Source of the DNA: a virus
Taxonomy: Duplodnaviria; Heunggongvirae; Uroviricota; Caudoviricetes
Direction: 5' to 3' (one strand)
Virus record (IMG/VR): IMGVR_UViG_2675903650_000012
Coordinates: 1 to 10,632 of that record
DNA: 10,632 bases
Shown here: positions 1 to 10,632 of the stretch, piece by piece
How positions within the stretch are numbered: the first letter of the stretch is position 1
Layout of the letters: each line of letters starts with the position of its first letter
Position numbers and translations under genes: made by a program
Notes under the pieces: generated by a model
What the model saw: only the letters and a program-made list of their open reading frames with translations
The model's database searches: none
What the model was told of the DNA's origin: nothing

Positions 1-164
1 CCGGAAGTTACAGGACAATGGCAGGAGGAAAACTACAGCCCGCAATACGAAAAAGGCCACGCAGTTGCGCAGCCTTATGAATTCTGGTTAAAATCCATTC
101 GATTATAAAAATGTATATCTCATGCTGTTGCCCGAACCCACTCAGGCTTTTTTTTGCCCACAAG

Positions 165-395
165 AAAGCCCCTCCGGAGAGGGGCTAAAGCCGCGTATCT
201 GTATCATCATGCACATGGTGCCGGGTGCCTCCCGGTGAGTTCAGCCCGGTGCCACTAAACCCGCGTCATTCTCGTTTTGATAATCAGAAATTATACCGTC
301 ACCAGTCGCCCCTCCGCTCAGGGGGATTCACCATGCGAAATTTTTTTAACAAATGCCCAGTCTGACAGGCAACTGTCAACTTACTGAATTGTGAG
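165..395. repeat. Structured repeat module, copy A: GC hairpin (168..185), ~120-bp imperfect palindrome closed by catggtg/caccatg (214..336), and conserved downstream blocks
   Basis: Identical or near-identical blocks shared with copy B: aaagcccctccggagaggggct; catggtgccgggtgcctcccggtgagttcag; gcccctccgc(t/a)cagggggattcaccatgc; ttttaacaaa; ca(a/g)c(t/a)gtcaac; ctgaattgtgag. The sequence between blocks has diverged. Confidence 0.6.
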
Positions 396-430
396 CAACA
401 TAGCATTTAACGGGGAACCTGTTTTCTGCA

Positions 431-459
431 GTAAAAAGGCCCACCGGAGCGGATGGGCC
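431..459 (-). terminator. Candidate rho-independent terminator on the minus strand, between the two repeat modules
   Basis: Stem ggccca/tgggcc (438..443 / 454..459) with a 10-nt loop; on the minus strand the hairpin is followed by a run of five T (complement of A 433..437). Confidence 0.45.
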
Positions 460-651
460 TGGAAGGATAGCGGTCATGTGATGCCGGTTTCCCGGTAACT
501 CAGCACCGGTATCTGAGTCAACGTTTTCTCTACTGGGTCATTTCCGATACGCCCTGCCTGCTGACAGGCTTTCATCACATCTGAAAATATAGCACCCTGA
601 CTGATACTGTAGTACCCAAGGTTCCAGAAACTGTGATGTATCCGGCACAGA

Positions 652-878
652 AAAGCCCCTCCGGAGAGGGGCTGGAGAGTGGCGCTATGTGCCATTGCAT
701 GGTGCCGGGTGCCTCCCGGTGAGTTCAGTATCAGCACCTGAACCCGCACAGAAAGGATAAGGGTCGGTGACAAAACACCAGTTGCTGATTGCCCCTCCGC
801 ACAGGGGGATTCACCATGCCAGTTTCTTTTAACAAACTCCCCGCAAACCAGACAACAGTCAACCGCCTGAATTGTGAG
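652..878. repeat. Structured repeat module, copy B (paralog of 165..395): hairpin 655..672, palindromic core 698..819
   Basis: Same ordered conserved blocks as copy A with different intervening sequence; the gttcag...ctgaac hairpin is perfect here and has one mismatch in copy A. Confidence 0.6.
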
Positions 879-1002
879 GTATTTAAAAATTTCAACGGGT
901 AACTGATACCCTGCTAATCGCCTGATGCTTTCTTTTTCAGCAACGGGAAAGCAACAACCACCACACCCACCAGCCGCCCATTTACCACAAATAAAAAATC
1001 CT

Positions 1003-1200
1003 TCACTGCGGAAGGCGTCTGTAACAACCGAACTGATAGTCTGCCAGACCCGCCATAACCAGCTGGGTCAGTATTAACTGGCAGCGTTCGCGTGAAAGGT
1101 AAGTATTCTGCGCAATCTCCCCGACTGTCGCCGGTTCGGTGGCACTTAATTCATTAAACACCACTCTGGCGGTTTCTGTCATATCCTGCTGTTTTAGCAT
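1003..1200 (-). CDS. Small hypothetical protein (65 aa) with an HTH/winged-helix-like segment, downstream of Q
   Basis: Taken from the internal ATG (MLKQQDMTETARVV...) of the 1003..1293 ORF, preceded by a purine-rich gggaaaaagac; the upstream GTG start in the track lacks an RBS and would overlap the terminator region. The segment ATVGEIAQNTYLSRERCQLILTQLVMAGLA resembles a DNA-binding HTH. Confidence 0.45.
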   Translation of the reverse strand: MLKQQDMTETARVVFNELSATEPATVGEIAQNTYLSRERCQLILTQLVMAGLADYQFGCYRRLPQ

Positions 1201-1320
1201 GTCTTTTTCCCTTTTCCGGTTAACGTGACACACCAATAACTCTTGTCGAAAAAGCCAGCAAGCTGAAAGACCGGTATTCACCACCACCAGCACGTTTACT
1301 GTACTGATGCGATTTCAGTC

Positions 1321-1347
1321 ATAAAAAACCCGCCAGGCGGCGGGTTT
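1321..1347 (-). terminator. Strong intrinsic terminator directly downstream of Q (tR'-like position)
   Basis: Perfect 6-bp GC stem cccgcc/ggcggg (1329..1334 / 1339..1344) with a 4-nt loop; on the minus strand it is followed by six T (complement of A 1323..1328). It lies ~60 nt after the Q stop codon. Confidence 0.65.
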
Positions 1348-1404
1348 AAGTTGTGTGGCGTAGTAACCACTCTTAACATACTGACATACTTTTTGCGGAC
1401 CGCG

Positions 1405-1797
1405 CTAATCATTTTTTACTTTTTTGGGCAGCCAGTCGTCCATCTCCAGCCTTACACCCAGCATCGACAGACATCCGTCAATAAATCCTTCAGCAATCTG
1501 CATCTCAATTCGTATTGCCTTTTCGCTCTTCTTTCTTGTTCTGGCAATCTGCCTTTTTGATATGCGCAGCAGATAATGAGCTACCAGCAGCGAATACTCG
1601 TCCGGTTTTTTCTTCTTCAGGCGCGTAAGGCAGTTTTCGATGATAAGGCCGTCATCATCGCTGCAGGCCGGGCGAGGTTTAGCGGTGGATGGTAAAAGGC
1701 CTTTAAATCCAGCAGCTATCGGAGAATAGTCCACCCCGGCGTTACCACTTGCCGCCCATGCCCCCCAGCGTTCGAGAACCATCTGAATATCACGCAT
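1405..1797 (-). CDS. Q: Late-gene antitermination protein Q (QuuD/phage-21-type Q family)
   Basis: Translation from the ATG at 1797 (MRDIQMVLERWGAWAA ... RLEMDDW...), with GGAG 7-10 nt upstream; the track start at 1812 is a TTG. The N-terminus and the ~130-aa length match my memory of E. coli cryptic-prophage Q proteins (QuuD-like). It is the last gene of the nin-region operon. Confidence 0.7.
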   Translation of the reverse strand: MRDIQMVLERWGAWAASGNAGVDYSPIAAGFKGLLPSTAKPRPACSDDDGLIIENCLTRLKKKKPDEYSLLVAHYLLRISKRQIARTRKKSEKAIRIEMQIAEGFIDGCLSMLGVRLEMDDWLPKKVKND

Positions 1798-1814
1798 CAA
1801 CTTTCTCCACAAAA

Positions 1815-2810
1815 TCAGGACAGCACACCAATCGCCAGCGCGCGATCGATAAAACGAAATATCAGCTCCAGCTGGGAGCCATACTTCTCTTCAAATGCCA
1901 CGGTATCCGCATGCAGCTCGTCGTGATGCTTTCTGCACAAAGGCAACACAAAGAGGTCATGCGCTTTTGTAGCCATTCCACCCTGACCGTGACCTATCAG
2001 GTGGTGGGGATCATCAGCAGGCTTTCCACAACATGCGCACGGCTGCGTCTTAACCCAGCGCGTGTACTTTTCATTAACCCAGCGGCGACGTTTTGGGCGT
2101 AACATAAAAGACTCCGGCGACTCCGGATCCACTTTCAGCGCCAGCACCTTTTTCGCTTTATCCCGGATAATACTGGTGGCGGGAACCGAAGGCACAAGGT
2201 CACTTTCCCGGGTGACAGACGGCACAACCGTCTTCGGTAATCTCAGTACCTTACGGGCTGCACTTTCCGGTAAGGCATCCGCCAGGTCATTACGAATCAG
2301 CCACCAGCACAGTTCCGGCATTGTCACAACGTGACTGTCATCAAAACCGAGATCCCGACGCACAACAGACAACACCCAGCGGGCACAGTTATCCGTTGCC
2401 ATTGATTCCAGCCGTTCCGTGAACTGATCGCGCAGCTGGTTATCGCAGTGCCAGCACAGACGGATTGCGCCCGGAGCGTGTCGCATTGTGGTCATGTTCT
2501 CGCTGTGCCATCCGGAATGAGGCCACTGGCAGCCTTTTTCACGAAGTAACCAGCTTTCAAGACATTCCACGCCACCAGCACGACGGATCACTGCCTCATG
2601 GCGGAACACGGACCGAACGGCAGGATCATCCGCCAGCGGTTGTGATGCCGCCGGAACGGCACCACTGGCGAAAGATGAATAACGCTCCGGCTCAGGCTCC
2701 AGCAGGACACGCCCCTGCATAAACAGGGGCATCAGCTCTGAACCTGGCCTGAACAATACGATCCCCATACGCGGGGCAATTTCAGGGGTCAGTAGTGCTC
2801 TCACAGTCAC
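1815..2810 (-). CDS. DUF968-like phage protein (YdfU-like) with a C-terminal Cys/His zinc-finger or HNH-like motif
   Basis: 331-aa ORF; C-terminus CACCGKPADDPHHLIGHGQGGMATKAHDLFVLPLCRKHHDELH (C-x2-C ... HH ... C ... HH ... H). It sits immediately upstream of Q, as ydfU does in Qin-like prophages (from memory). Start uncertain: GTG at 2810 or GTG at 2804 behind a GAGG. Confidence 0.7.
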   Translation of the reverse strand: MTVRALLTPEIAPRMGIVLFRPGSELMPLFMQGRVLLEPEPERYSSFASGAVPAASQPLADDPAVRSVFRHEAVIRRAGGVECLESWLLREKGCQWPHSGWHSENMTTMRHAPGAIRLCWHCDNQLRDQFTERLESMATDNCARWVLSVVRRDLGFDDSHVVTMPELCWWLIRNDLADALPESAARKVLRLPKTVVPSVTRESDLVPSVPATSIIRDKAKKVLALKVDPESPESFMLRPKRRRWVNEKYTRWVKTQPCACCGKPADDPHHLIGHGQGGMATKAHDLFVLPLCRKHHDELHADTVAFEEKYGSQLELIFRFIDRALAIGVLS

Positions 2811-2811
2811 C

Positions 2812-3627
2812 TCAATGAACGGTATCGAGCAGCTTTAACAGCTCAGGAAATCGGGATTCGAAGAAATGCGGCTGCGTCTCGCGCGGATTTGCAGGACTGG
2901 TGATGTTCTTGCCGAACATGCAGCCTTTCGCGGTCAGCGACCAGAATTTTTTGATGTTGTTAATCGCGGTACGGCTGTATCGTTCGCGTTGTTCAACGAT
3001 CCCCAGCTTCGCCATCTGGTGATATGCCTGATTAGCCGTCAGGCGGATACCATACTGCTTCAGCAGTGCACTCAGCGACAGCGTAGGGCGGCTTGAACCA
3101 TCTGGCGCATCAGCAGGTGCATCAATGGCATAGATCGGCATAAGTTCAGGAAGACCAGCTACCTTTGATAATTTCTGGTATGCACCAAGTTTCGAGGAGT
3201 TTGACAGATTTAGAGTCTTTGCTGCTGATTCAAGCAGAATGACCCCGGATTTAATTTTGTCGGATGTGGTTTCTTCTGGTGATGAATTATGAAGCGCATC
3301 AAAAGTACGTATCACTTTTAAGCTGAATGCCGGGCTGATCCACATTGCATATGCATAGACCAGCTCTTTACAGACATACGTCCCACCATTGCGCCCCTGA
3401 ATGGTGATGACAGGAATACTACGGGAATCTCCCGTAGTTTCTTCTTCCAATAATTCCACAAGAGCCTTCGTTTCAGGACGACGCATAAACTCGTGAACTT
3501 CCAGCGAACGGGAGGAGCGATTCTCACCAGCGGCAAGAAGAGCAGCTTTCTGAAGGTCGTTAAGACAGTAGTTAGATTCGAAGTACTGGCGCACAGAAAC
3601 GCCATCAATTACAAGCAACTGATTCAT
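2812..3627 (-). CDS. KilA-N domain protein
   Basis: Translation from the ATG at 3627 (MNQLLVIDG...), with GGAG 7-10 nt upstream. KilA-N hallmark GGTYVCKELVYAYAMWISPAFSLKVIRTFD. The C-terminal half (from about residue 150) is a separate, unassigned region. Confidence 0.75.
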   Translation of the reverse strand: MNQLLVIDGVSVRQYFESNYCLNDLQKAALLAAGENRSSRSLEVHEFMRRPETKALVELLEEETTGDSRSIPVITIQGRNGGTYVCKELVYAYAMWISPAFSLKVIRTFDALHNSSPEETTSDKIKSGVILLESAAKTLNLSNSSKLGAYQKLSKVAGLPELMPIYAIDAPADAPDGSSRPTLSLSALLKQYGIRLTANQAYHQMAKLGIVEQRERYSRTAINNIKKFWSLTAKGCMFGKNITSPANPRETQPHFFESRFPELLKLLDTVH

Positions 3628-3724
3628 TGGTTTCTCCACAAATTTTTATCCACGAGCGGGACTGCACTCCCTTTTCGTTGATGCAGGATGAACTTACTGC
3701 GATTTTTAATAGTTATCAAGGATA

Positions 3725-3744
3725 CACTGTTCATAAATACAGTA
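3725..3744. promoter_or_regulatory. LexA-box-like palindrome (SOS-box candidate) upstream of the KilA-N/DUF968/Q genes
   Basis: CACTGTTCATAAATACAGTA: CTGT (3727..3730), an 8-nt AT-rich spacer, ACAG (3739..3742); 16 of 20 positions match the consensus TACTGTATATATATACAGTA as I recall it. Flanked by GATAC (3721..3725) and GTATC (3742..3746). Lies in the 160-bp gap between rusA and the KilA-N gene. Confidence 0.4.
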
Positions 3745-3789
3745 TCTTTAACGAGGTAATACCCAAATTTAGGGTGTTGCTCAATTCCG

Positions 3790-4185
3790 TTACCGAGTTG
3801 CTAATTTGCAACTCGCTTTTTCGTACTTACTGATAGTGATCTCGACCTTCCCTTCCGGGATAACCGGTCCCCACTCCACCAGCATTCTTTTCACCTGGCT
3901 GTCGTCTTCCCACACACCCGCGTGGGTCAGGGCGTCAAACAGCGCCTTGTTATAGTTGTCCAGATCGCGGATCCGGTTATCCGGAGGAAACAACACGATC
4001 TCCACTGAAGCAGGTGCCGACGTTGGTTTCGGCAGACGACGTAACTGCTCAACTATTGCTGCACACGCCGCGCTCTGGAATTTTCGCCCCGCCGCGCTTA
4101 TCAGGCTCTTACCAGCAAACGCCCCTTTGTTGGGGTGTCGCCAGTACGTGTTCACGCTGGGCGGAAAAGGCAGTATTAGCTTCAT
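3790..4185 (-). CDS. rusA: Crossover junction endodeoxyribonuclease RusA (Holliday junction resolvase)
   Basis: 131 aa; N-terminus MKLILPFPPSVNTYWRH resembles RusA (...LPWPPSNNRYYRH) and the catalytic-region motif RIRDLDNYNKALFDAL is present. The ATG overlaps the upstream stop (ATGA). Confidence 0.9.
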   Translation of the reverse strand: MKLILPFPPSVNTYWRHPNKGAFAGKSLISAAGRKFQSAACAAIVEQLRRLPKPTSAPASVEIVLFPPDNRIRDLDNYNKALFDALTHAGVWEDDSQVKRMLVEWGPVIPEGKVEITISKYEKASCKLATR

Positions 4186-4835
4186 GCCACCATCTCCCTG
4201 ACCAGTTTTTCCGCCTGCTGGCGAACCTGCGCCAGAAATGCCTCACCACATGCCTCAAGTTCATCGCGCCCGATGTAGCTGATTGCCGGTCCCTTCCAGG
4301 TCTTGTCGAAAACAGCAATAGCACCAGCGAAGAAAGCACCTGTTGGCACCTGCTTTTCGTCTTTCGGGATAAACCAGGCAGGCAGTTCAAAACCAATACG
4401 CCCGCGAATAAAAGCAATATGATCTGCATCTTCCGGCCACCACACTTCGCTGGTGGCAGCTTTGATCAGGAAAACATAGCGCCCGCCTTTATCACGCATG
4501 GCAGTGGCATGCTTCATGATGTAACGCATGCCGGTGATGTATTGCCCCTCATGCTGACTGGCGCGGCTGTACGGGGGATTGCCAAAGGCAGCACCTTTAA
4601 GCTCCGCAAGACGTTCTGACCAGTCATGCGCCAGCGCGTTGTCTTCCGCCGTGTAATACGCGGCACATTTGGCGTTATCACCGTCAGTGAACAGATCCAG
4701 AACAAACGGACCAAACAAGGTGTTAATTCCCCAGAAAATGTTATCCGGCGTGCGCCACTGATCTCCCACTTCCTTCAGTTCATGGGCTGGTTTATTCCGC
4801 AGTTCCACCAGCGCCTGGCAATATTTATTACTCAT
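4182..4835 (-). CDS. Phage DNA N6-adenine methyltransferase (Dam-type)
   Basis: 217 aa; NPPY catalytic motif (AAFGNPPYSRA); typical nin-region methylase of lambdoid phages. Start ATG overlaps the stop of the upstream 30-aa ORF (TAATG). Confidence 0.85.
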   Translation of the reverse strand: MSNKYCQALVELRNKPAHELKEVGDQWRTPDNIFWGINTLFGPFVLDLFTDGDNAKCAAYYTAEDNALAHDWSERLAELKGAAFGNPPYSRASQHEGQYITGMRYIMKHATAMRDKGGRYVFLIKAATSEVWWPEDADHIAFIRGRIGFELPAWFIPKDEKQVPTGAFFAGAIAVFDKTWKGPAISYIGRDELEACGEAFLAQVRQQAEKLVREMVA

Positions 4836-4927
4836 TAAGCCCCCACGTAAAAAGCATCCGCAATGTCTCCGGAAGTACAGCCAGGATGGGCTTCAATGAA
4901 TTTCTGAACTTCATTCAAAAGACTCAT
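4835..4927 (-). CDS. Small ORF (30 aa, MSLLNEVQKFIEAHPGCTSGDIADAFYVGA), hypothetical
   Basis: Not in the ORF track (too short). Strong SD AGGGGGTG 5 nt upstream of the ATG; its stop overlaps the methylase ATG (TAATG) and its start lies 2 nt after the O-like stop. Confidence 0.35.
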   Translation of the reverse strand: MSLLNEVQKFIEAHPGCTSGDIADAFYVGA

Positions 4928-4929
4928 GA

Positions 4930-5913
4930 TCACCCCCTGAATCCTGCCGGAATCTGGCTGTAGTCCACGTTGTCGTAACTGGCTTTGAAGTACGGGTCCT
5001 CGCGTCTGGCTGCAGATACCGCAGGAACTTCCCAGGATTCTTCGAAATGACGATCCGGACCAAAGAACGTCGACGCCTGCTTCACGAACTGGGTACCGGT
5101 ATTTCCAGAGACACGCACCCAGGCGGCATAGCGTTTCACACCGTCGAGCATGGTTTCGGGTGTCACACCTTCCCTGATTCGGGCTTTCCAGGCTTTAAAA
5201 GCGGCGGATTTTGAATTACCACCAGCACGTTTGGGATATTCCTGCCAGGCCTGTTCAAATTCCGGTGAATATTCCTGTCGGGCAGAACGCGCTGGCGCAG
5301 ACGCGTCAGCGGATGCATCAATAGTGTTTTTAGTCTCCGTTGTAATCTCTGTAGTAATCTCTGTATTTGTATCAACATTCAGCGTATCCCCTGTTCCGTT
5401 ATGACGTCGGGGGGTGTTCCGTTTTAACGTAATAGCTGTATCGCTGATTGCATTATTGCTGTTACTTTCTGGCGAAACAGAAGAAGGTGTGGTGATGGCC
5501 GCAATTGCCTGTGGGTTGATCCCGACAAACAAAATATTGCTGCATTTCACCCCATCGAGCATTTCCACCGTGCGTAAATCCAGAGTAATAAACCCTGCAT
5601 CGCGCAGACGCTTCAGCGCATCTGCGGTTTCCCTTTTCCCGAAACCAAACTGCTCAGCAAACGCCTGGTAGCTTCTTTGCAGTTTGTCGCCCTGAAAACG
5701 CTTGCGATATCCCAGCAACGCTCCGGTGTGCTCATCCCTGACCTCTGTCGGGCGGTACCAGTAAACGATCTCTGAAAGCAGAGCGATAGCCGTCGCATCC
5801 GGACGCCCACTGGGTAGTCGAATATATTTCCACCAGTTCGCAGGTGTAACATTGCCGGAAATATTAATTTGACCAATAGCCATAACTTCCGGTGTGGGGG
5901 CGTAACGGCTCAT
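4930..5913 (-). CDS. Phage replication initiator / replisome organizer (lambda O-like), with iterons inside the gene
   Basis: 327 aa; N-terminal region (...IVYWYRPTEVRDEHTGALLGYRKRFQGDKLQRSYQAFAEQFGFGKRETADALKRLRDAGFI...) resembles DnaD/replisome-organizer N-domains. A central linker (TEITTEITTETKNT, ASADASA) is encoded by direct DNA repeats, as ori-lambda lies within O. Confidence 0.65.
   Translation of the reverse strand: MSRYAPTPEVMAIGQINISGNVTPANWWKYIRLPSGRPDATAIALLSEIVYWYRPTEVRDEHTGALLGYRKRFQGDKLQRSYQAFAEQFGFGKRETADALKRLRDAGFITLDLRTVEMLDGVKCSNILFVGINPQAIAAITTPSSVSPESNSNNAISDTAITLKRNTPRRHNGTGDTLNVDTNTEITTEITTETKNTIDASADASAPARSARQEYSPEFEQAWQEYPKRAGGNSKSAAFKAWKARIREGVTPETMLDGVKRYAAWVRVSGNTGTQFVKQASTFFGPDRHFEESWEVPAVSAARREDPYFKASYDNVDYSQIPAGFRG
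5333..5380. repeat. Candidate origin iterons inside the O-like gene
   Basis: tagtctccgttg / taatctctgtag / taatctctgtat / ttgtatcaacat: tandem 12-bp units, with two exact gtaatctctgta copies at 5342..5353 and 5354..5365. Confidence 0.5.
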
Positions 5914-6209
5914 ACAACCTCCTTCCGCGGCATGAGAATTGTGTAGCCACGCGCAGGTTGTAGTCTGGCTTTTGCATCAATAGTAAGCGTTGCAATTTTT
6001 CGGATATGAAGATAACCAGCTCTTTCCAGTGCCAGGGTTTCCCTGAATATCGCTTGCTTAGAACAACAGCAGAAATCAGCAAGCACCTGATGATCAATAA
6101 CTCTCTCGCCTTCACCGTCTGAAGAACCCGACATCAAAACACGCAACATAATCAGGCGCTGAATCGGGTTATCGAAAGCACATCCGCACACAAACTGAAA
6201 ACAGTTCAC
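5910..6209 (-). CDS. Hypothetical protein (99 aa), translationally coupled to the O-like gene
   Basis: Stop overlaps the O-like ATG (ATGA at 5910..5913) and start overlaps the upstream stop (6206..6209). Cys-rich (CGC, CCC); a possible HTH at QAIFRETLALERAGYL. Confidence 0.5.
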   Translation of the reverse strand: MNCFQFVCGCAFDNPIQRLIMLRVLMSGSSDGEGERVIDHQVLADFCCCSKQAIFRETLALERAGYLHIRKIATLTIDAKARLQPARGYTILMPRKEVV

Positions 6210-6430
6210 GCCACACCTCCCAGACGCTTAAACATTTTTCCGGAGCAAAAGGCTATAAGCGGCATACTGATGCGGTAATTACGGCCCAGCGGTTCACAAA
6301 TCACCTTCTGACATTCACGGTCAACCAGGCTGACACGTAGAACATGCCCTGCAGGCGTGGTGTACCACTGACCAGGACGAGGACAACGGAAAGTCTGATT
6401 GGTAAACCGTTTGAAAATATTCCGGATCAT
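6206..6430 (-). CDS. Hypothetical protein (74 aa)
   Basis: ATGA overlaps with both neighbours; same strand and operon context. No family recognised. Confidence 0.45.
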   Translation of the reverse strand: MIRNIFKRFTNQTFRCPRPGQWYTTPAGHVLRVSLVDRECQKVICEPLGRNYRISMPLIAFCSGKMFKRLGGVA

Positions 6431-7587
6431 TTGCGCCCCCTTACCTCTGAAGGGTTCAGCGACAAATTTATGAGACTGGCCAGTAGCGCCGCGTCGTTGA
6501 TGCGGTCATACAGACTTACAGCCAGCGGGGATTCGGCTTTTGCCAACATGGGATAAAGCTGCTGCAGCCAGACCTTGTGGATTACCGACAGGTGGGAGTA
6601 AAGCACGCTGGCGTTATCTGCGGCATCGCTCAGCGTGGATGGCTTTGAAAGCAGTTTTTCCATCTGGTTAAAGGCATTGATGTATGCCTCTTTGAACCGG
6701 GCAGCACGTTTACCCGTGAAACCCATAGCAAGAAACGCAAAACCGTCTCGTGTGATTTGATAGCAAGGGAGCTTGCGTGTACCACCGTTCGGTTGATTTA
6801 CCGAAATCGATGTCTCCGCAAAATTGCGGGCACAAAACTCTGGGGAACAATCCAGAGTGCGGATCTTTTTCAGCACATCGTCGTGACGCTTGGAGAAGGA
6901 GTTGGCAACAGCCAAAGAAGTGGTAACGGCCTGGCCGTTGTCAATGGTGATTTCAGGTTGAGTGAGGGCTGGGATCGTAGCCATGATGGCAGCCTCCGTT
7001 GACAGTGAAAAACTTCCACCACCGGAAACGCCAATTTCACTGGTGGTGAACTGGACGGGGTTGGCGTAACCGGCGTCAACGGAGACCGGCGCACCTTTCG
7101 GTGCCCCCGCCCAGCCCACCATAATCTGGATGTGAGCAAATGCGGACGATAAAAAAGACGCTGGCGCGTCATACATCGCCGTTGACAATTTCAGGACGCC
7201 AATCCCGGCACCCGCTTTATAAGGTGCCTGAACAGTGTAACGTCCCGGAATGGCAGAATCAATGTGCTGGTGGTCCTTCACACTCAACAAAATCACGCCT
7301 GAATTTCCACAAAGGACTAAAGCACTCATGCTGGTAGTCTTTGCGAAGATAGATAACGCGCTGTGTTTCTGGCTCCCAACGAATAACATGAACATAAAGT
7401 CCTCTTCCGTCACGAAACCAGCGGTTAAGTTCCTGCACAACTCGCCCCCCACAGTCAGGTAAAGTTCTCTGTGGTTACTTACAGCCAGGTGATTTGGTAA
7501 TCTGCATTCATGCCGTAACAACAGGTGTTCAGCGACGCTGACCACCAGCTGTTGCGACAAACGGTTATTTGCCGTTAAACTATTCAT
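6427..7587 (-). CDS. Rha-family phage regulatory protein with a ~200-aa N-terminal extension of unknown function
   Basis: Residues ~205-320 (MATIPALTQPEITIDNGQAVTTSLAVANSFSKRHDDVLKKI...YQITRDGFAFLAMGFTGKRAARFKEAYINAFNQMEKLL) match the Rha N-terminal domain. The ORF continues in frame ~200 aa upstream (Gly-rich linker VSGGGSFSLS) and its ATG overlaps the stop of the CII-like gene (ATGA at 7584..7587). Confidence 0.65.
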   Translation of the reverse strand: MNSLTANNRLSQQLVVSVAEHLLLRHECRLPNHLAVSNHRELYLTVGGELCRNLTAGFVTEEDFMFMLFVGSQKHSALSIFAKTTSMSALVLCGNSGVILLSVKDHQHIDSAIPGRYTVQAPYKAGAGIGVLKLSTAMYDAPASFLSSAFAHIQIMVGWAGAPKGAPVSVDAGYANPVQFTTSEIGVSGGGSFSLSTEAAIMATIPALTQPEITIDNGQAVTTSLAVANSFSKRHDDVLKKIRTLDCSPEFCARNFAETSISVNQPNGGTRKLPCYQITRDGFAFLAMGFTGKRAARFKEAYINAFNQMEKLLSKPSTLSDAADNASVLYSHLSVIHKVWLQQLYPMLAKAESPLAVSLYDRINDAALLASLINLSLNPSEVRGRK

Positions 7588-8153
7588 GCGTTAGTTTCTC
7601 CACAACCAGAAGCAATCGACGCCACGACGCCCGGAGCTGCACACTCGCGGGCGTTACTATTTTCTGGAGCGCAGAAGATTTTGTAGACCAGTGCTGCATG
7701 CTCCTGGAGCTTCGAAATTGAGAGGTACAGCTCGTCGTTAATTGCTGTCTTCTCATGCGGTTCCACTACACCGTCTTCGATTGCTGAACGAATCTGTCTG
7801 GAATAACTGCCGATCTGTTCAATGACTTCCAGCAGACGCTGGTTAATATCGGCGTTGTCCACATCCTCGACGTCAGGAAGAGACACAAAGACGCCATTTG
7901 CAGACTGCGCCACAGCGTCAGCAATGAAGTGAGTTCCACCAGCACGTTGTAAAATCATTGCCCATCCCAGCGGGAAAATCTGATCGCCATCGGCACGAAG
8001 GCGATTGAATAAAGCGTTCTCTGTTACATCCAGCCACTCAGCAGCTTCAGCGTAACCCCCCGGCAACGCCGCGATAGTTTTTCTGACAGCTTTCACGTAC
8101 CACTCAGGCTGTTTTTCTACTTTCCAGTGATGCTTACCCACGGTTAGCCTCAT
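7584..8153 (-). CDS. Putative CII-like / YdaT-like regulator (189 aa)
   Basis: Second gene after the Cro-like gene, the usual CII/YdaT position. Putative HTH GGYAEAAEWLDVTENALFNRLRADGDQ. No SD is visible upstream of the ATG (cagaacg ATG). The family assignment is positional and weak. Confidence 0.5.
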   Translation of the reverse strand: MRLTVGKHHWKVEKQPEWYVKAVRKTIAALPGGYAEAAEWLDVTENALFNRLRADGDQIFPLGWAMILQRAGGTHFIADAVAQSANGVFVSLPDVEDVDNADINQRLLEVIEQIGSYSRQIRSAIEDGVVEPHEKTAINDELYLSISKLQEHAALVYKIFCAPENSNARECAAPGVVASIASGCGETNA

Positions 8154-8184
8154 CGTTCTGTGGTTAAAAATTGAAGGTGTTCTG

Positions 8185-8385
8185 TTAATCTTTCGGATAG
8201 ATATCCGGTCTTAAGTCAGATTTCGTAATTGCACCTGACGTGCATTGCTCAAGTTTTTTAGCCAGCACAAAACTGGCTTTTTTATAACCATTGAAAACCA
8301 GCCGTAAGTAGCCTGGTGTTGAGCCAACTTTTCCGGCCAACTCGCCCTGCTGTTCTTTGGTTAAAGAGTCCCAATACGCTTTCAT
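8185..8385 (-). CDS. cro: Cro-like HTH regulator (YdaS-type, 66 aa)
   Basis: Translation from the internal ATG at 8385 (MKAYWDSLTKEQQGELAGKVGSTPGYLRLVFNGYKK...LRPDIYPKD), with GGAGG ~10 nt upstream. The C-terminus (...TKSDLRPDI) resembles YdaS (...CEELRPDI). The longer 167-aa ORF would begin upstream of the predicted pR start site and overlap the operators. Confidence 0.7.
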   Translation of the reverse strand: MKAYWDSLTKEQQGELAGKVGSTPGYLRLVFNGYKKASFVLAKKLEQCTSGAITKSDLRPDIYPKD

Positions 8386-8390
8386 ACAAT

Positions 8391-8470
8391 ATGTACCTCC
8401 GATATACATATTACATGATTGAGATGAACCTTCAAGATACTTGTACCCTATCGGTACAAAGGTTTTAATT
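8391..8470. promoter_or_regulatory. Divergent switch region (OR-like): candidate pR (minus), candidate pRM (plus, leaderless cI), and two 19-bp operators
   Basis: Operators ATGTACC-tccga-TATACAT (8391..8409) and the perfect palindrome TTGTACC-ctatc-GGTACAA (8441..8459). Candidate pR on the minus strand: -35 TTGAAG (8430..8435), 16-bp spacer, -10 TAATAT (8408..8413). Candidate pRM on the plus strand: -35 TTGTAC (8441..8446), 17-bp spacer, -10 TTTAAT (8464..8469), placing the start site at or next to the cI ATG (8476). Confidence 0.5.
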
Positions 8471-8475
8471 TCGTT

Positions 8476-9150
8476 ATGAAAACAGTCCATGACATCCGGC
8501 GGTCTAACGCCAGAAAACTGAGAGATGGTGTTGGCGGGAATTCTTCCTTTGCCACCATGATTGATCGCGAGCCAACCCAGACCAGCAGGTTTATGGGAGA
8601 TGGTGCTACTAAAAATATCGGTGACAGCATGGCACGGCACATCGAAAAATGTTTCGACCTGCCTGTCGGATGGCTTGATCAAGAACACCAGACAACAAAC
8701 ATCACAAAAAAACCTGATGTTTCAATTACTAACAAACAAATAACGTTAGTCCCTGTCATATCATGGGTACAGGCCGGAGCATGGAAAGAAGTTGGCTATT
8801 CTGAGGTTGATTTGAGCACAGCAGAAACTTATCCCTGCCCTGTACCCTGTGGCGAAATGACTTATATCTTGCGGGTGATTGGTGATTCAATGATTGATGA
8901 GTACCGCCCGGGAGACATGATTTTTGTAGATCCTGAAGTCCCTGCCTGCCACGGTGACGACGTTATTGCATTGATGCACGATACAGGCGAAACCACCTTT
9001 AAGCGGTTGATAGAAGATGGAACACAGCGTTACCTCAAAGCATTAAACCCAAACTGGCCTGAACCTTACATTAAGATCAACGGTAATTGCTCTATAATTG
9101 GCACAGTAATTTTCTCAGGAAAACCAAGAAGATACAAAATAAAGGCCTAA
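8476..9150 (+). CDS. cI: CI/C2-type prophage repressor (HTH N-domain plus S24 LexA-like autopeptidase C-domain)
   Basis: 224 aa; C-domain LVPVISWVQAGAWKEV...VIGDSMIDEYRPGDMIFVDPEV...TFKRL...LKALNPNWPEPYIKINGNCSIIG closely resembles P22 C2 / lambda CI. Catalytic Ser (GDSM) and Lys (TFKRL) are present, as is an Ala-Gly candidate cleavage site (VQAGAW). Confidence 0.9.
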   Translation: MKTVHDIRRSNARKLRDGVGGNSSFATMIDREPTQTSRFMGDGATKNIGDSMARHIEKCFDLPVGWLDQEHQTTNITKKPDVSITNKQITLVPVISWVQAGAWKEVGYSEVDLSTAETYPCPVPCGEMTYILRVIGDSMIDEYRPGDMIFVDPEVPACHGDDVIALMHDTGETTFKRLIEDGTQRYLKALNPNWPEPYIKINGNCSIIGTVIFSGKPRRYKIKA

Positions 9151-9161
9151 TCAATATTTAT

Positions 9162-9185
9162 AACCTGCTTCGGCAGGTTTTTTTA
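9162..9185 (+). terminator. Intrinsic terminator of the cI transcript
   Basis: Stem aacctgc/gcaggtt (9162..9168 / 9173..9179) with loop ttcg, followed by a T run through 9184; begins 12 nt after the cI stop. Confidence 0.7.
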
Positions 9186-9188
9186 TAC

Positions 9189-9221
9189 TTGACAATGTAC
9201 CCTTGAGATACATAATGTATC
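9189..9221 (+). promoter_or_regulatory. pL-like promoter with overlapping operators
   Basis: -35 TTGACA (9189..9194), 16-bp spacer, -10 CATAAT (9211..9216). Operator ATGTACC-cttga-GATACAT (9195..9213) has the same architecture as the two OR sites; a perfect 15-bp palindrome GATACATaATGTATC (9207..9221) overlaps the -10. Confidence 0.6.
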
Positions 9222-9633
9222 TAAAAGAAACATGTCACAGGCAAGATTAAACAAAATTTGGTTGTAACACGGCGTATGGCACATGCGTCGTTAGCGGTCT
9301 GGGGACGTTAAAGGGGACAATCCACTCCTTGCTCGGGCAAACAAACCAGGTAGCCGGAATGTGCAAGTCAATGAGGATGCTGATAAGACGCCTAACCAGC
9401 GTGGCGATTCGGTTTGACGCCTGGGAAGAGACCAGGGTGCAACGATGAGGGCATTTATGGAACCGCGACAAAGTATGGTGCCGTAACTGGCTAAGTGCTC
9501 TCAGCGTTGTGGTAATCCGCGAAATGGCGCGGCGGTAAGTATGGCGGGGTTATTCCTTCCCCGTTGAGGACACCGGGTTGTCAGGTTGACCATACGCTTA
9601 AGTGACAAGCCCACCACAACAGCCACTGCTTTG

Positions 9634-9679
9634 GCGGTACCAGTTTGTACACTTGCTTCCGGCTGGTACCGCTCTTTTT
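9634..9679 (+). terminator. Strong intrinsic terminator inside the long leader downstream of pL
   Basis: Perfect 10-bp stem gcggtaccag/ctggtaccgc (9634..9643 / 9663..9672) with a 19-nt loop, followed by tcttttt (9673..9679). Confidence 0.6.
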
Positions 9680-9816
9680 ACAAAACAGAGAAGAGCATCA
9701 CCGGACGACGGGCTCATAACCCAATCCACCCGGGCGGCTGCCACCGCAGGTGTTCTTCTCTGTTTTGTGGAGAAACCAACCGACCTTGCAGGGTCGATAT
9801 GATGAGGAGCAGCAAA

Positions 9817-10179
9817 ATGGCTAGCGAACGCAGTACTGATGTGCAGGCATTTATCGGGGAGCTGGACGGCGGCGTATTTGAAACCAAAATCGGCGCTGTT
9901 CTCAGTGAAGTCGCTTCAGGTGTGATGAACACGAAAACCAAAGGGAAGGTCTCGCTCAACCTGGAAATCGAACCGTTTGATGAGAACCGTGTGAAAATAA
10001 AACACAAACTCTCATATGTTCGTCCGACTAACCGCGGGAAAATTTCCGAAGAAGACACCACCGAAACGCCGATGTATGTCAATCGCGGTGGTCGCCTGAC
10101 TATTCTGCAGGAAGACCAGGGACAATTACTGACTCTTGCCGGTGAACCTGACGGAAAACTCCGCGCAGCAGGTCATTAA
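9817..10179 (+). CDS. Hypothetical protein (120 aa), first gene of the pL-side operon
   Basis: Translation from the ATG at 9817 (MASERSTDVQAFIGELDGG...), with strong SD GAGGAG (9804..9809) 7 nt upstream. The upstream in-frame extension to 9586 runs through the terminator hairpin and begins at a TTG. Acidic, with no Arg-rich motif, so not N-like. Confidence 0.6.
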   Translation: MASERSTDVQAFIGELDGGVFETKIGAVLSEVASGVMNTKTKGKVSLNLEIEPFDENRVKIKHKLSYVRPTNRGKISEEDTTETPMYVNRGGRLTILQEDQGQLLTLAGEPDGKLRAAGH

Positions 10180-10244
10180 TATCGTTCTTAATTAACTGAT
10201 TATTTATCTCATCACTGAATATCTTTATATAGTGAGGACTTATT

Positions 10245-10628
10245 ATGTCTCAGAACTTAGACGCAACCGCAATTAATCAAATCCATGCCCTTATTTCTGC
10301 GCAGGGTGTTAATGAAATTATCAGTAAGATTGGTGCCGATGCTGTGGCATTGCCTGAGAATTTCCGCATTCATGATCTGGAAAAATTTAATTTAAATCGC
10401 TTCCGTTTCCGTGGTGCGCTTTCCACTGCCAGCATCGATGACTTTACCCGTTATTCTAAAGATCTTGCAGATGAAGGCACCCGCTGCTTTATCGATGCTG
10501 ATAATATGCGTGCCGTCAGTGTGCTTAACCTGGGTACTATTGATGAACCAGGTCACGCAGATAACACCGCCACTCTCAAACTGAAAAAGACAGCACCGTT
10601 CTCTGTGTCAACGACGGATGAAAAGTGA
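10245..10628 (+). CDS. Hypothetical protein (127 aa)
   Basis: Complete ORF from ATG to TGA, with SD GAGGA ~7 nt upstream (agtgaggacttatt ATG). No family recognised. Confidence 0.6.
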
Positions 10629-10632
10629 TCCA

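Follow-up and report, generated by a model that had tools for sequence, protein, structure and literature searches.

In an SfIV-like lambdoid prophage, a high-quality SOS box adjoins a predicted internal promoter for kilA-N, DUF968 and Q

The stretch of DNA considered here, 10,632 nucleotides that make up positions 1 to 10,632 of the viral record IMGVR_UViG_2675903650_000012 (hereafter the window), covers the early-right part of a lambdoid prophage that resembles SfIV; its operon runs along the minus strand. Pfam assignments give the gene order. The CI repressor gene (8476-9150, plus strand) encodes an S24 peptidase; cro-like, cII-like, and Rha-family genes separate it from the Dam methylase gene of the minus-strand operon (4182-4835). 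Then come, all on the minus strand, rusA (3790-4185); kilA-N (2812..3627; 271 residues; Pfam KilA-N, 1.3e-15; phrog_129); a DUF968/HNH gene (1815..2810) that abuts kilA-N; and, last in the block, the gene for the Q antiterminator (1405..1812; Pfam Phage_antitermQ, 3.3e-52). The order rusA, kilA-N, DUF968, Q is widespread, occurring for example in mEp460, ST64B, and YeP2.

DUF968 is mentioned in a study of Orf-family recombinases that includes HNH fusions (PMC4118853). For the KilA-N protein, searches of Pfam, PHROGs, NCBIfam, PADLOC, and PDB sequences returned only the KilA-N domain itself or a generic "transcriptional regulator"; domain and sequence searches found no ANT, Bro, or P22_AR domain and no PDB relative. 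Its AlphaFold model is mediocre (pLDDT 70.8, pTM 0.42), and a Foldseek comparison of that model with the PDB gave nothing at E <0.5.

Small RNA genes are also present on the minus strand. The long Rha-family open reading frame contains, in its 5' part, a C4 antisense RNA (7039-7126; 81.4 bits) and isrK (7151-7227; 62.2 bits), and a Pfam "Ash" match covers the same stretch; this arrangement suggests that a Rha or antirepressor-like gene in the early-right operon may be under RNA control. Downstream of Q are two to three tandem copies of the prophage sRNA STnc100 (156-365 and 643-848, with 165.8 and 141.4 bits, and weakly 431-604). An AsxR/AgvB-like match on the plus strand (100-152) scores 56.5, just below the gathering score of 63.

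The intergenic region between rusA and kilA-N is the subject of this analysis. An earlier note on this DNA had given the gap as 3640-3789, which would start kilA-N at GTG 3639. The start is corrected here to the ATG at 3627-3625, which stands 6 nt behind the Shine-Dalgarno sequence GGAG (3634..3637, minus strand; GTGGAGA is conserved in relatives) and yields a 271-residue product 100% identical to P0001. The gap therefore spans 3628-3789 (162 nt). It is the largest in the rightward operon but, contrary to the note, not the only sizeable one, since positions 4836-4929 form another of 94 nt.

Over the 601 bases around the palindrome in the gap (see below), identity with Shigella phage SfIV and with Escherichia phage PhiR49_1 is 99.3-99.5%, and a 271-base segment spanning the gap is found in 186 of 5426 complete Escherichia coli genomes, always between rusA and kilA-N. 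Carriers include O104:H4 C227-11, S88, and O157:H7 FRIK944, plus phage SfIV. (A connection with Stx was considered and dropped: the O104:H4 and O157 FRIK944 carrier prophages inspected are non-Stx.) A mosaic junction lies inside rusA, where similarity to a far commoner rusA body ends at about 3817; a single mosaic module therefore comprises kilA-N, the gap, and the nine final codons of rusA. The imported rusA tail (...KASCKLATR) contains a terminator-like hairpin, discussed below.

Within the gap, positions 3725..3744 form a 20-bp palindrome that reads CACTGTTCATAAATACAGTA on the plus strand and TACTGTATTTATGAACAGTG on the minus strand. The earlier note had described a LexA-box-like site here, and rightly so: the CTGT-N8-ACAG core is perfect, and 16 of 20 positions match the E. 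coli consensus, TACTGTATATATATACAGTA. The versions in SfIV and AZ187 (...CAGTA) are nearer still to the consensus, at 17 of 20. A heterology index was built from 30 E. coli SOS boxes, and so only approximates the Lewis 1994 matrix. On this approximate scale the palindrome scores 4.9 (plus) and 6.6 (minus), the next best site in the window scores 11.3, and genuine boxes range from 0.8 to 10 overall, with recA at 5.5 and uvrB at 6.5. The note had proposed this scoring, with a poor result to count against the site; the result is good. None of 300 Markov-shuffled windows reached 4.9 (the best gave 6.46). By these sequence measures, 3725-3744 is a high-quality SOS box, and by far the best LexA-like site in the window.

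The CTGT-N8-ACAG pattern occurs twice in the window, against 0.18 expected. The second occurrence (7469-7484; GGCTGTAAGTAACCACAGAG on the minus strand) has a poor index, 15.7, and lies about 240 nt upstream of the isrK and C4 RNA genes, within the annotated Rha/Ash open reading frame. The exact 20-mer of the box is found in 101 viral contigs. Two unrelated GC-rich viral contigs (L177, at 9572, and L212, at 117) have the identical 20-mer, which there probably represents a convergent LexA operator, as fits a shared LexA constraint. One of these two copies lies just upstream of an open reading frame that adjoins an integrase-like gene.

Next to the box is a candidate promoter. A weighted promoter scan predicts, on the minus strand, a −35 element TTGATA (3714..3719) and a −10 element TAAGTT (3691..3696) with a 17-nt spacer; the hexamer positions place the predicted transcription start at about 3684 (3683..3686), inside the interval 3640-3720 in which the earlier note had expected a minus-strand start. 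TTGATA-17-TAAGTT matches the consensus at 8 of 12 positions and has the top promoter score in the gap (10.8), among the top five in the window on both strands. A stricter promoter scan returned no promoter in 3300-4200. The promoter-like element starts 5 nt downstream of the box, which spans about −60 to −41 of the predicted promoter (centre at about −50.5) and does not overlap its core. A weak second box-like 20-mer, AACTATTAAAAATCGCAGTA (3695..3714, minus strand; index 15.2), spans the spacer and the −10 element, and its CAGTA half is kept in 7 of 13 aligned upstream sequences of the group A defined below, the window's included. That this second 20-mer aids LexA binding is speculative.

The predicted promoter reads into kilA-N, DUF968, and Q. 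These three genes abut, and no convincing minus-strand terminator was found between 3627 and 1405 (kilA-N to Q), so a transcript that starts in the gap should include Q. The earlier note had spoken of an internal promoter for Q. The direction and reach of the promoter-like element agree with this, but the gene linked to the box across relatives is kilA-N; because Q types differ between carriers and only the link to kilA-N is consistent, a promoter for Q is something that we infer.

Comparison of kilA-N loci provides the broader view. Homologues of the KilA-N protein number in the thousands; the loci compared were 65 from species-representative genomes and 80 from viral contigs. By the gap upstream of kilA-N, they divide into two classes. 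At short-gap loci, the gene comes directly after its neighbour, with 16-42 nt between them. Long-gap loci have about 85-160 nt there, and in these a LexA-like palindrome of 20 bp is found repeatedly, 55-117 nt ahead of the ATG. Within −150 to −30, an index of 10 or less is reached at 11 of the 30 distinct long-gap loci and one of 12 or less at 16, where dinucleotide shuffling leads one to expect 0.03 and 0.16; these loci are related, however, and so do not count as 30 independent events. Such a box is present at none of the 14 short-gap loci. Likewise, CTG-N10-CAG is found in eight long-gap loci versus no short-gap loci. Neither box nor promoter is present in about 29 of 76 distinct upstream sequences, whose gaps measure 16-42 nt; most E. 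coli homologues (about 70% identical) are of this kind. Since these box-less homologues are common, LexA control would be optional for kilA-N.

The box and the predicted promoter abut or overlap in at least three arrangements. Group A consists of the window together with Citrobacter, Raoultella, Kluyvera, Atlantibacter, Leclercia, and other loci; here, 4-5 nt separate the end of the palindrome from the promoter. In Rosenbergiella and Pantoea (L018, L020, L025), the box overlaps the −35 element, whereas overlap with the −10 element is seen in Erwinia (L039, TTGCCA-17-TATATT) and Gilliamella (L046). That the layouts vary around the same gene argues for selection on LexA control. Three relatives (L008 at 5671, L025 at 5451, and L043 at 4960) contain a very strong SOS box, TACTGTAAAAATAAACAGTG (index 4-4.5), directly after the ATG of an open reading frame for a DPPY-motif DNA methyltransferase, about 0.5 kb downstream of Q. 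This box is absent from the window.

Alignment of 13 group A upstream regions (KilA-N protein identity to the query, 59-100%) reveals conservation in separate islands: the two palindrome halves; the −35 and −10 elements; a hairpin; and the Shine-Dalgarno sequence. As judged from the alignment, this is a classical footprint pattern. The promoter is conserved as TTGAnA-17-TAAnnT, and relatives carry TAAGGT, TAATGT, or TAGTGT at the aligned −10 position. In several group A relatives, the promoter-distal half of the palindrome is GTGGAT instead of CTG, and is conserved in this form; this half would be expected to weaken binding by host LexA there. The left half in the window differs from that of the close relative L118 (GGTGGATAA to ACTGTATTT), and the difference goes toward the LexA consensus.

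The hairpin among these islands has a wider distribution than the box. It lies in the predicted 5' leader as a stem-loop, ACGA-AAA-GGGA-GTGCAG-TCCC-GC-TCGT (3652..3678, minus strand), and is present in almost all homologues (L004-L050, L017, L069-L071), 24-50 nt before the ATG and just upstream of the ribosome-binding site; in short-gap loci it overlaps the rusA stop codon. Across 28 distinct loci the stems differ, while in the loop, (G/T)TGC(A/G)G, the residues TGC(A/G)G are invariant. In a loop-anchored, ungapped alignment of the 28 distinct sequences, the stem positions pair in 80.7% of cells, versus 50.9% in shuffles (0 of 500 reach the observed value) and at most 49% in slid controls, and all five leader stem pairs show compensatory changes. 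With its covarying arms and unchanging loop, the structure looks like an RNA (or single-stranded) element that a protein may recognise. No U-run follows, so the structure is not an intrinsic terminator; Rfam contains no match to it. A variant with an 11-bp deletion (CTCGTGGATAA) at 3646-3656, present in O157 FRIK944, AZ187, and several viral contigs, lacks the 3' lower stem of this hairpin and retains the upper stem and loop.

Together, these observations suggest a model in which the palindrome is a host-LexA operator that gates an SOS-inducible internal promoter for kilA-N, DUF968, and Q. This reading, built on sequence comparison, has somewhat better than even odds (about 0.55); LexA binding, repression from about −50, and an output of Q large enough to matter are each presumed. 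According to the model, a σ70-type promoter inside the nin region would read from the gap into the kilA-N, DUF968/HNH, and Q genes. In the undamaged lysogen, LexA would sit on −60 to −41, blocking the AT-rich upstream region and crowding the −35 hexamer, and thereby keep the promoter quiet. DNA damage would lead to RecA-stimulated LexA self-cleavage and free the promoter, and KilA-N, DUF968, and possibly Q would then be made without transcription arriving from pR. This route would run in parallel to the cleavage of the S24-type CI protein.

The earlier note had made the same proposal, and the features of CI on which it relied are present: the S24 peptidase domain is accompanied by a QAG/AW cleavage site and by GDSM and FKRL motifs, which supply the Ser/Lys dyad. 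Because CI looks autocleavable, LexA control would be a parallel input rather than a substitute. The comparative data strengthen the proposal of LexA gating; the position of the box, off the core promoter, weakens it. Characterised LexA operators usually overlap the −35 element, the −10 element, or the start site, and repression by LexA from a box centred at about −50, upstream of −35, would be unusual. Literature searches turned up neither this site nor any case of LexA control at a kilA-N/Q block.

That position is also compatible with a box that has no consequence: it could be the relic of a mosaic module, or LexA could occupy −50 without effect, the genes being expressed only by read-through from pR. 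The many homologues that manage with neither box nor promoter fit this, as does a C-to-G change that breaks the box in the contig L100, and the module itself offers little help, since its near-identical copies (8 distinct sequences among 50 full-length copies) vary too little to demonstrate purifying selection on the box. The very high quality of the site, the conserved promoter islands, and the family-wide enrichment of LexA-like boxes here, in several promoter layouts, nevertheless make an inert box unlikely. A further reading concerns the sequences that flank the box. GATAC-N(3-18)-GTATC occurs in the window only at pL (9207-9221) and in the gap (two occurrences versus 0.06 expected), and the earlier note had correctly seen in these half-sites an echo of pL and allowed for a phage factor; on this view the site might be an extra operator for CI or Cro. 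The immunity operators (8380-8480 and 9190-9225), a region that SfIV shares with a few substitutions, appear to be ATAC-N5-GTA(T/C) palindromes, such as GATACATAATGTATC at 9207-9221. In the gap, however, 16 nt separate the two arms, a helical turn more than a dimer could span; the axis of symmetry between them is displaced by 1 bp from the axis of the box; and both arms are partly made up of the TAC/GTA ends of the SOS box itself. Moreover, SfIV has ATATC at the gap site, so the right arm is not conserved there, and group A relatives lack the flanks. The N16 spacing and this lack of conservation led to rejection of the CI-operator reading, and a role for CI or Cro is highly improbable.

The box might instead serve the opposite strand. 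Past it lies a two-hairpin structure (3755..3823, plus strand): a hairpin at 3755-3781, then the terminator-like hairpin at 3794-3815, then CTTTTT. (As an intrinsic terminator for minus-strand transcription, the hairpin at the rusA end was ruled out, as its T-run is on the other strand.) LexA could then mainly gate a divergent plus-strand promoter for a structured RNA of about 75 nt (about 3748-3823), antisense to the 3' end of rusA, and by covering the spacer and −10 element of that promoter the box would hold a classical repressing position. Region 3748-3826 does fold better as plus-strand RNA (−27.7 kcal/mol, z −5.4, with 0 of 200 shuffles as good) than as minus-strand RNA (−20.7 kcal/mol, z −2.4). 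Hairpin 3755-3781 contains three G-U pairs, available on the plus strand only; two of the three AZ187 substitutions within it keep plus-strand pairing as G-U; and the terminator-like site is called on the plus strand only. Yet plus-strand promoter scores are poor, 7.2 at most, with 5.8 for the candidate that overlaps the box; the overall fold in AZ187 is weak (z −0.7); and other group A relatives have the box without any such plus-strand structure. Rfam contains nothing credible for the gap on either strand (a Ysr209 match, 14.4 bits and E 7.3, vanished in a larger search). The region exists only in the near-identical module of the window type. On balance, control of a plus-strand RNA seems rather improbable.

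Other alternatives involve a second DNA-binding protein. Related prophages encode a 108-residue truncated LexA homologue, 43% identical to residues 1-86 of E. coli LexA and matched by TIGR00498. It consists of the DNA-binding domain only, with no cleavage domain, followed by a conserved tail of about 35 residues, and its recognition helix (RSVNAAVEHLRAL) closely resembles the one in LexA (RSPNAAEEHLKAL). The gene, on the minus strand in relatives (9623-9949 in L152; 3612-3938 in L002 and L003; 7558-7884 in L001), is located between dam and rusA. Of the viral contigs with the exact box that could be assessed, 82 of 88 have it, as do 8 of the 11 group A relatives whose upstream DNA extends far enough and the SfIV, O104:H4, and O157 prophages. 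A tblastn search found none in the window. (Two apparent fusions of LexA and KilA-N domains, P0096 and P0107, were considered as a domain-swap family and set aside; they look like rare deletion chimeras of the truncated lexA-like gene and kilA-N.)

The palindrome could be mainly the operator of this phage-encoded protein, acting as a non-cleavable repressor or as a gp6-like activator; the window would then have lost the gene, leaving the site orphaned or served in trans. The LexA-like recognition helix and the frequent presence of the gene alongside the box, in exact-box contigs and group A relatives alike, are in keeping with this. In addition, the gene is missing from loci whose box overlaps −35 or −10 (L018, L020, L025, L039, L046, L014, L007, and L019), though present in L016 and L036; the conserved GTGGAT half-site suggests a ligand that is not quite host LexA; and phage GIL01 offers a precedent for activation of a late promoter from −43.5 (PMC6182141). 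The earlier note had allowed for a phage factor at this site; of such factors, the truncated homologue is a better candidate than CI acting through the flanks. Its absence from the window nevertheless speaks against it, as does the 98% identical protein in short-gap phages that lack a box before kilA-N (L017 and mEp460 L071), and the box in the window is canonical in both halves, favouring host LexA. That the site serves mainly the phage protein is improbable. It is also conceivable, if doubtful, that both proteins act at the palindrome near −50, competing or succeeding one another, to supply an SOS input to Q. Loss of LexA would license Q expression; the non-cleavable homologue would tune or time it; and in the window, as a naturally occurring variant, the host-LexA arm alone would be left. 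Such a two-protein circuit, if real, would be a Gram-negative counterpart of GIL01 LexA/gp6, and would let DNA damage trigger late genes, including those for lysis, from prophages with intact CI.

LexA boxes on temperate phages are already known, in Gifsy, 186, GIL01, and CTX. In coliphage 186 and Salmonella phage SPC32H, the LexA-repressed genes tum and ant encode antirepressors that promote lytic development. There, host LexA represses a phage gene directly, as is predicted here; those genes specify antirepressors, whereas only a KilA-N domain is recognisable in the present case. Chromosomal boxes of E. coli (recA, sulA, umuDC, uvrB, and others) share the 20-bp consensus and have comparable index values, but they usually overlap −35, −10, or the start, whereas the box in the gap abuts −35 from upstream.

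The nearest precedent comes from the Gifsy prophages of Salmonella. Downstream of their replication genes are LexA-controlled loci that comprise a dinI homologue and antirepressor genes, gftA among them (PMC3121763). The likeness is one of plan: a LexA box at an internal promoter downstream of replication genes, and an SOS route that bypasses the immunity region. The differences are several. Gifsy repressors are not cleaved and need an antirepressor, whereas CI here has the features of S24 autocleavage; the downstream genes are dinI and a small antirepressor in the one, kilA-N, DUF968, and Q in the other; terminator-like palindromes precede the Gifsy boxes, but the T-run that accompanies the present hairpin belongs to the other strand; and only here is the box upstream of −35.

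Phage GIL01 of Bacillus thuringiensis also ties late-gene control to LexA-type sites. Its late promoter P3 combines host LexA boxes with gp6, a truncated LexA homologue that activates from −43.5 (PMC6182141), and the palindrome in the gap similarly lies just upstream of −35. The truncated homologue of the relatives is about as similar to its host LexA as that of GIL01 is (43% versus 44%). However, phage type and host are different; in GIL01 gp6 has a site separate from the LexA boxes, themselves located inside the promoter; and the window has no truncated homologue.

If host LexA does gate the promoter in the gap, a prophage with cleavable CI would gain a second, CI-independent route from DNA damage to Q. 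The speed and tightness of lysis after SOS induction would be affected, along with the expression of late-operon cargo, and defective or hetero-immune prophages could respond to damage. The module is frequent enough to be studied: 186 of the 5426 complete genomes of E. coli have it.
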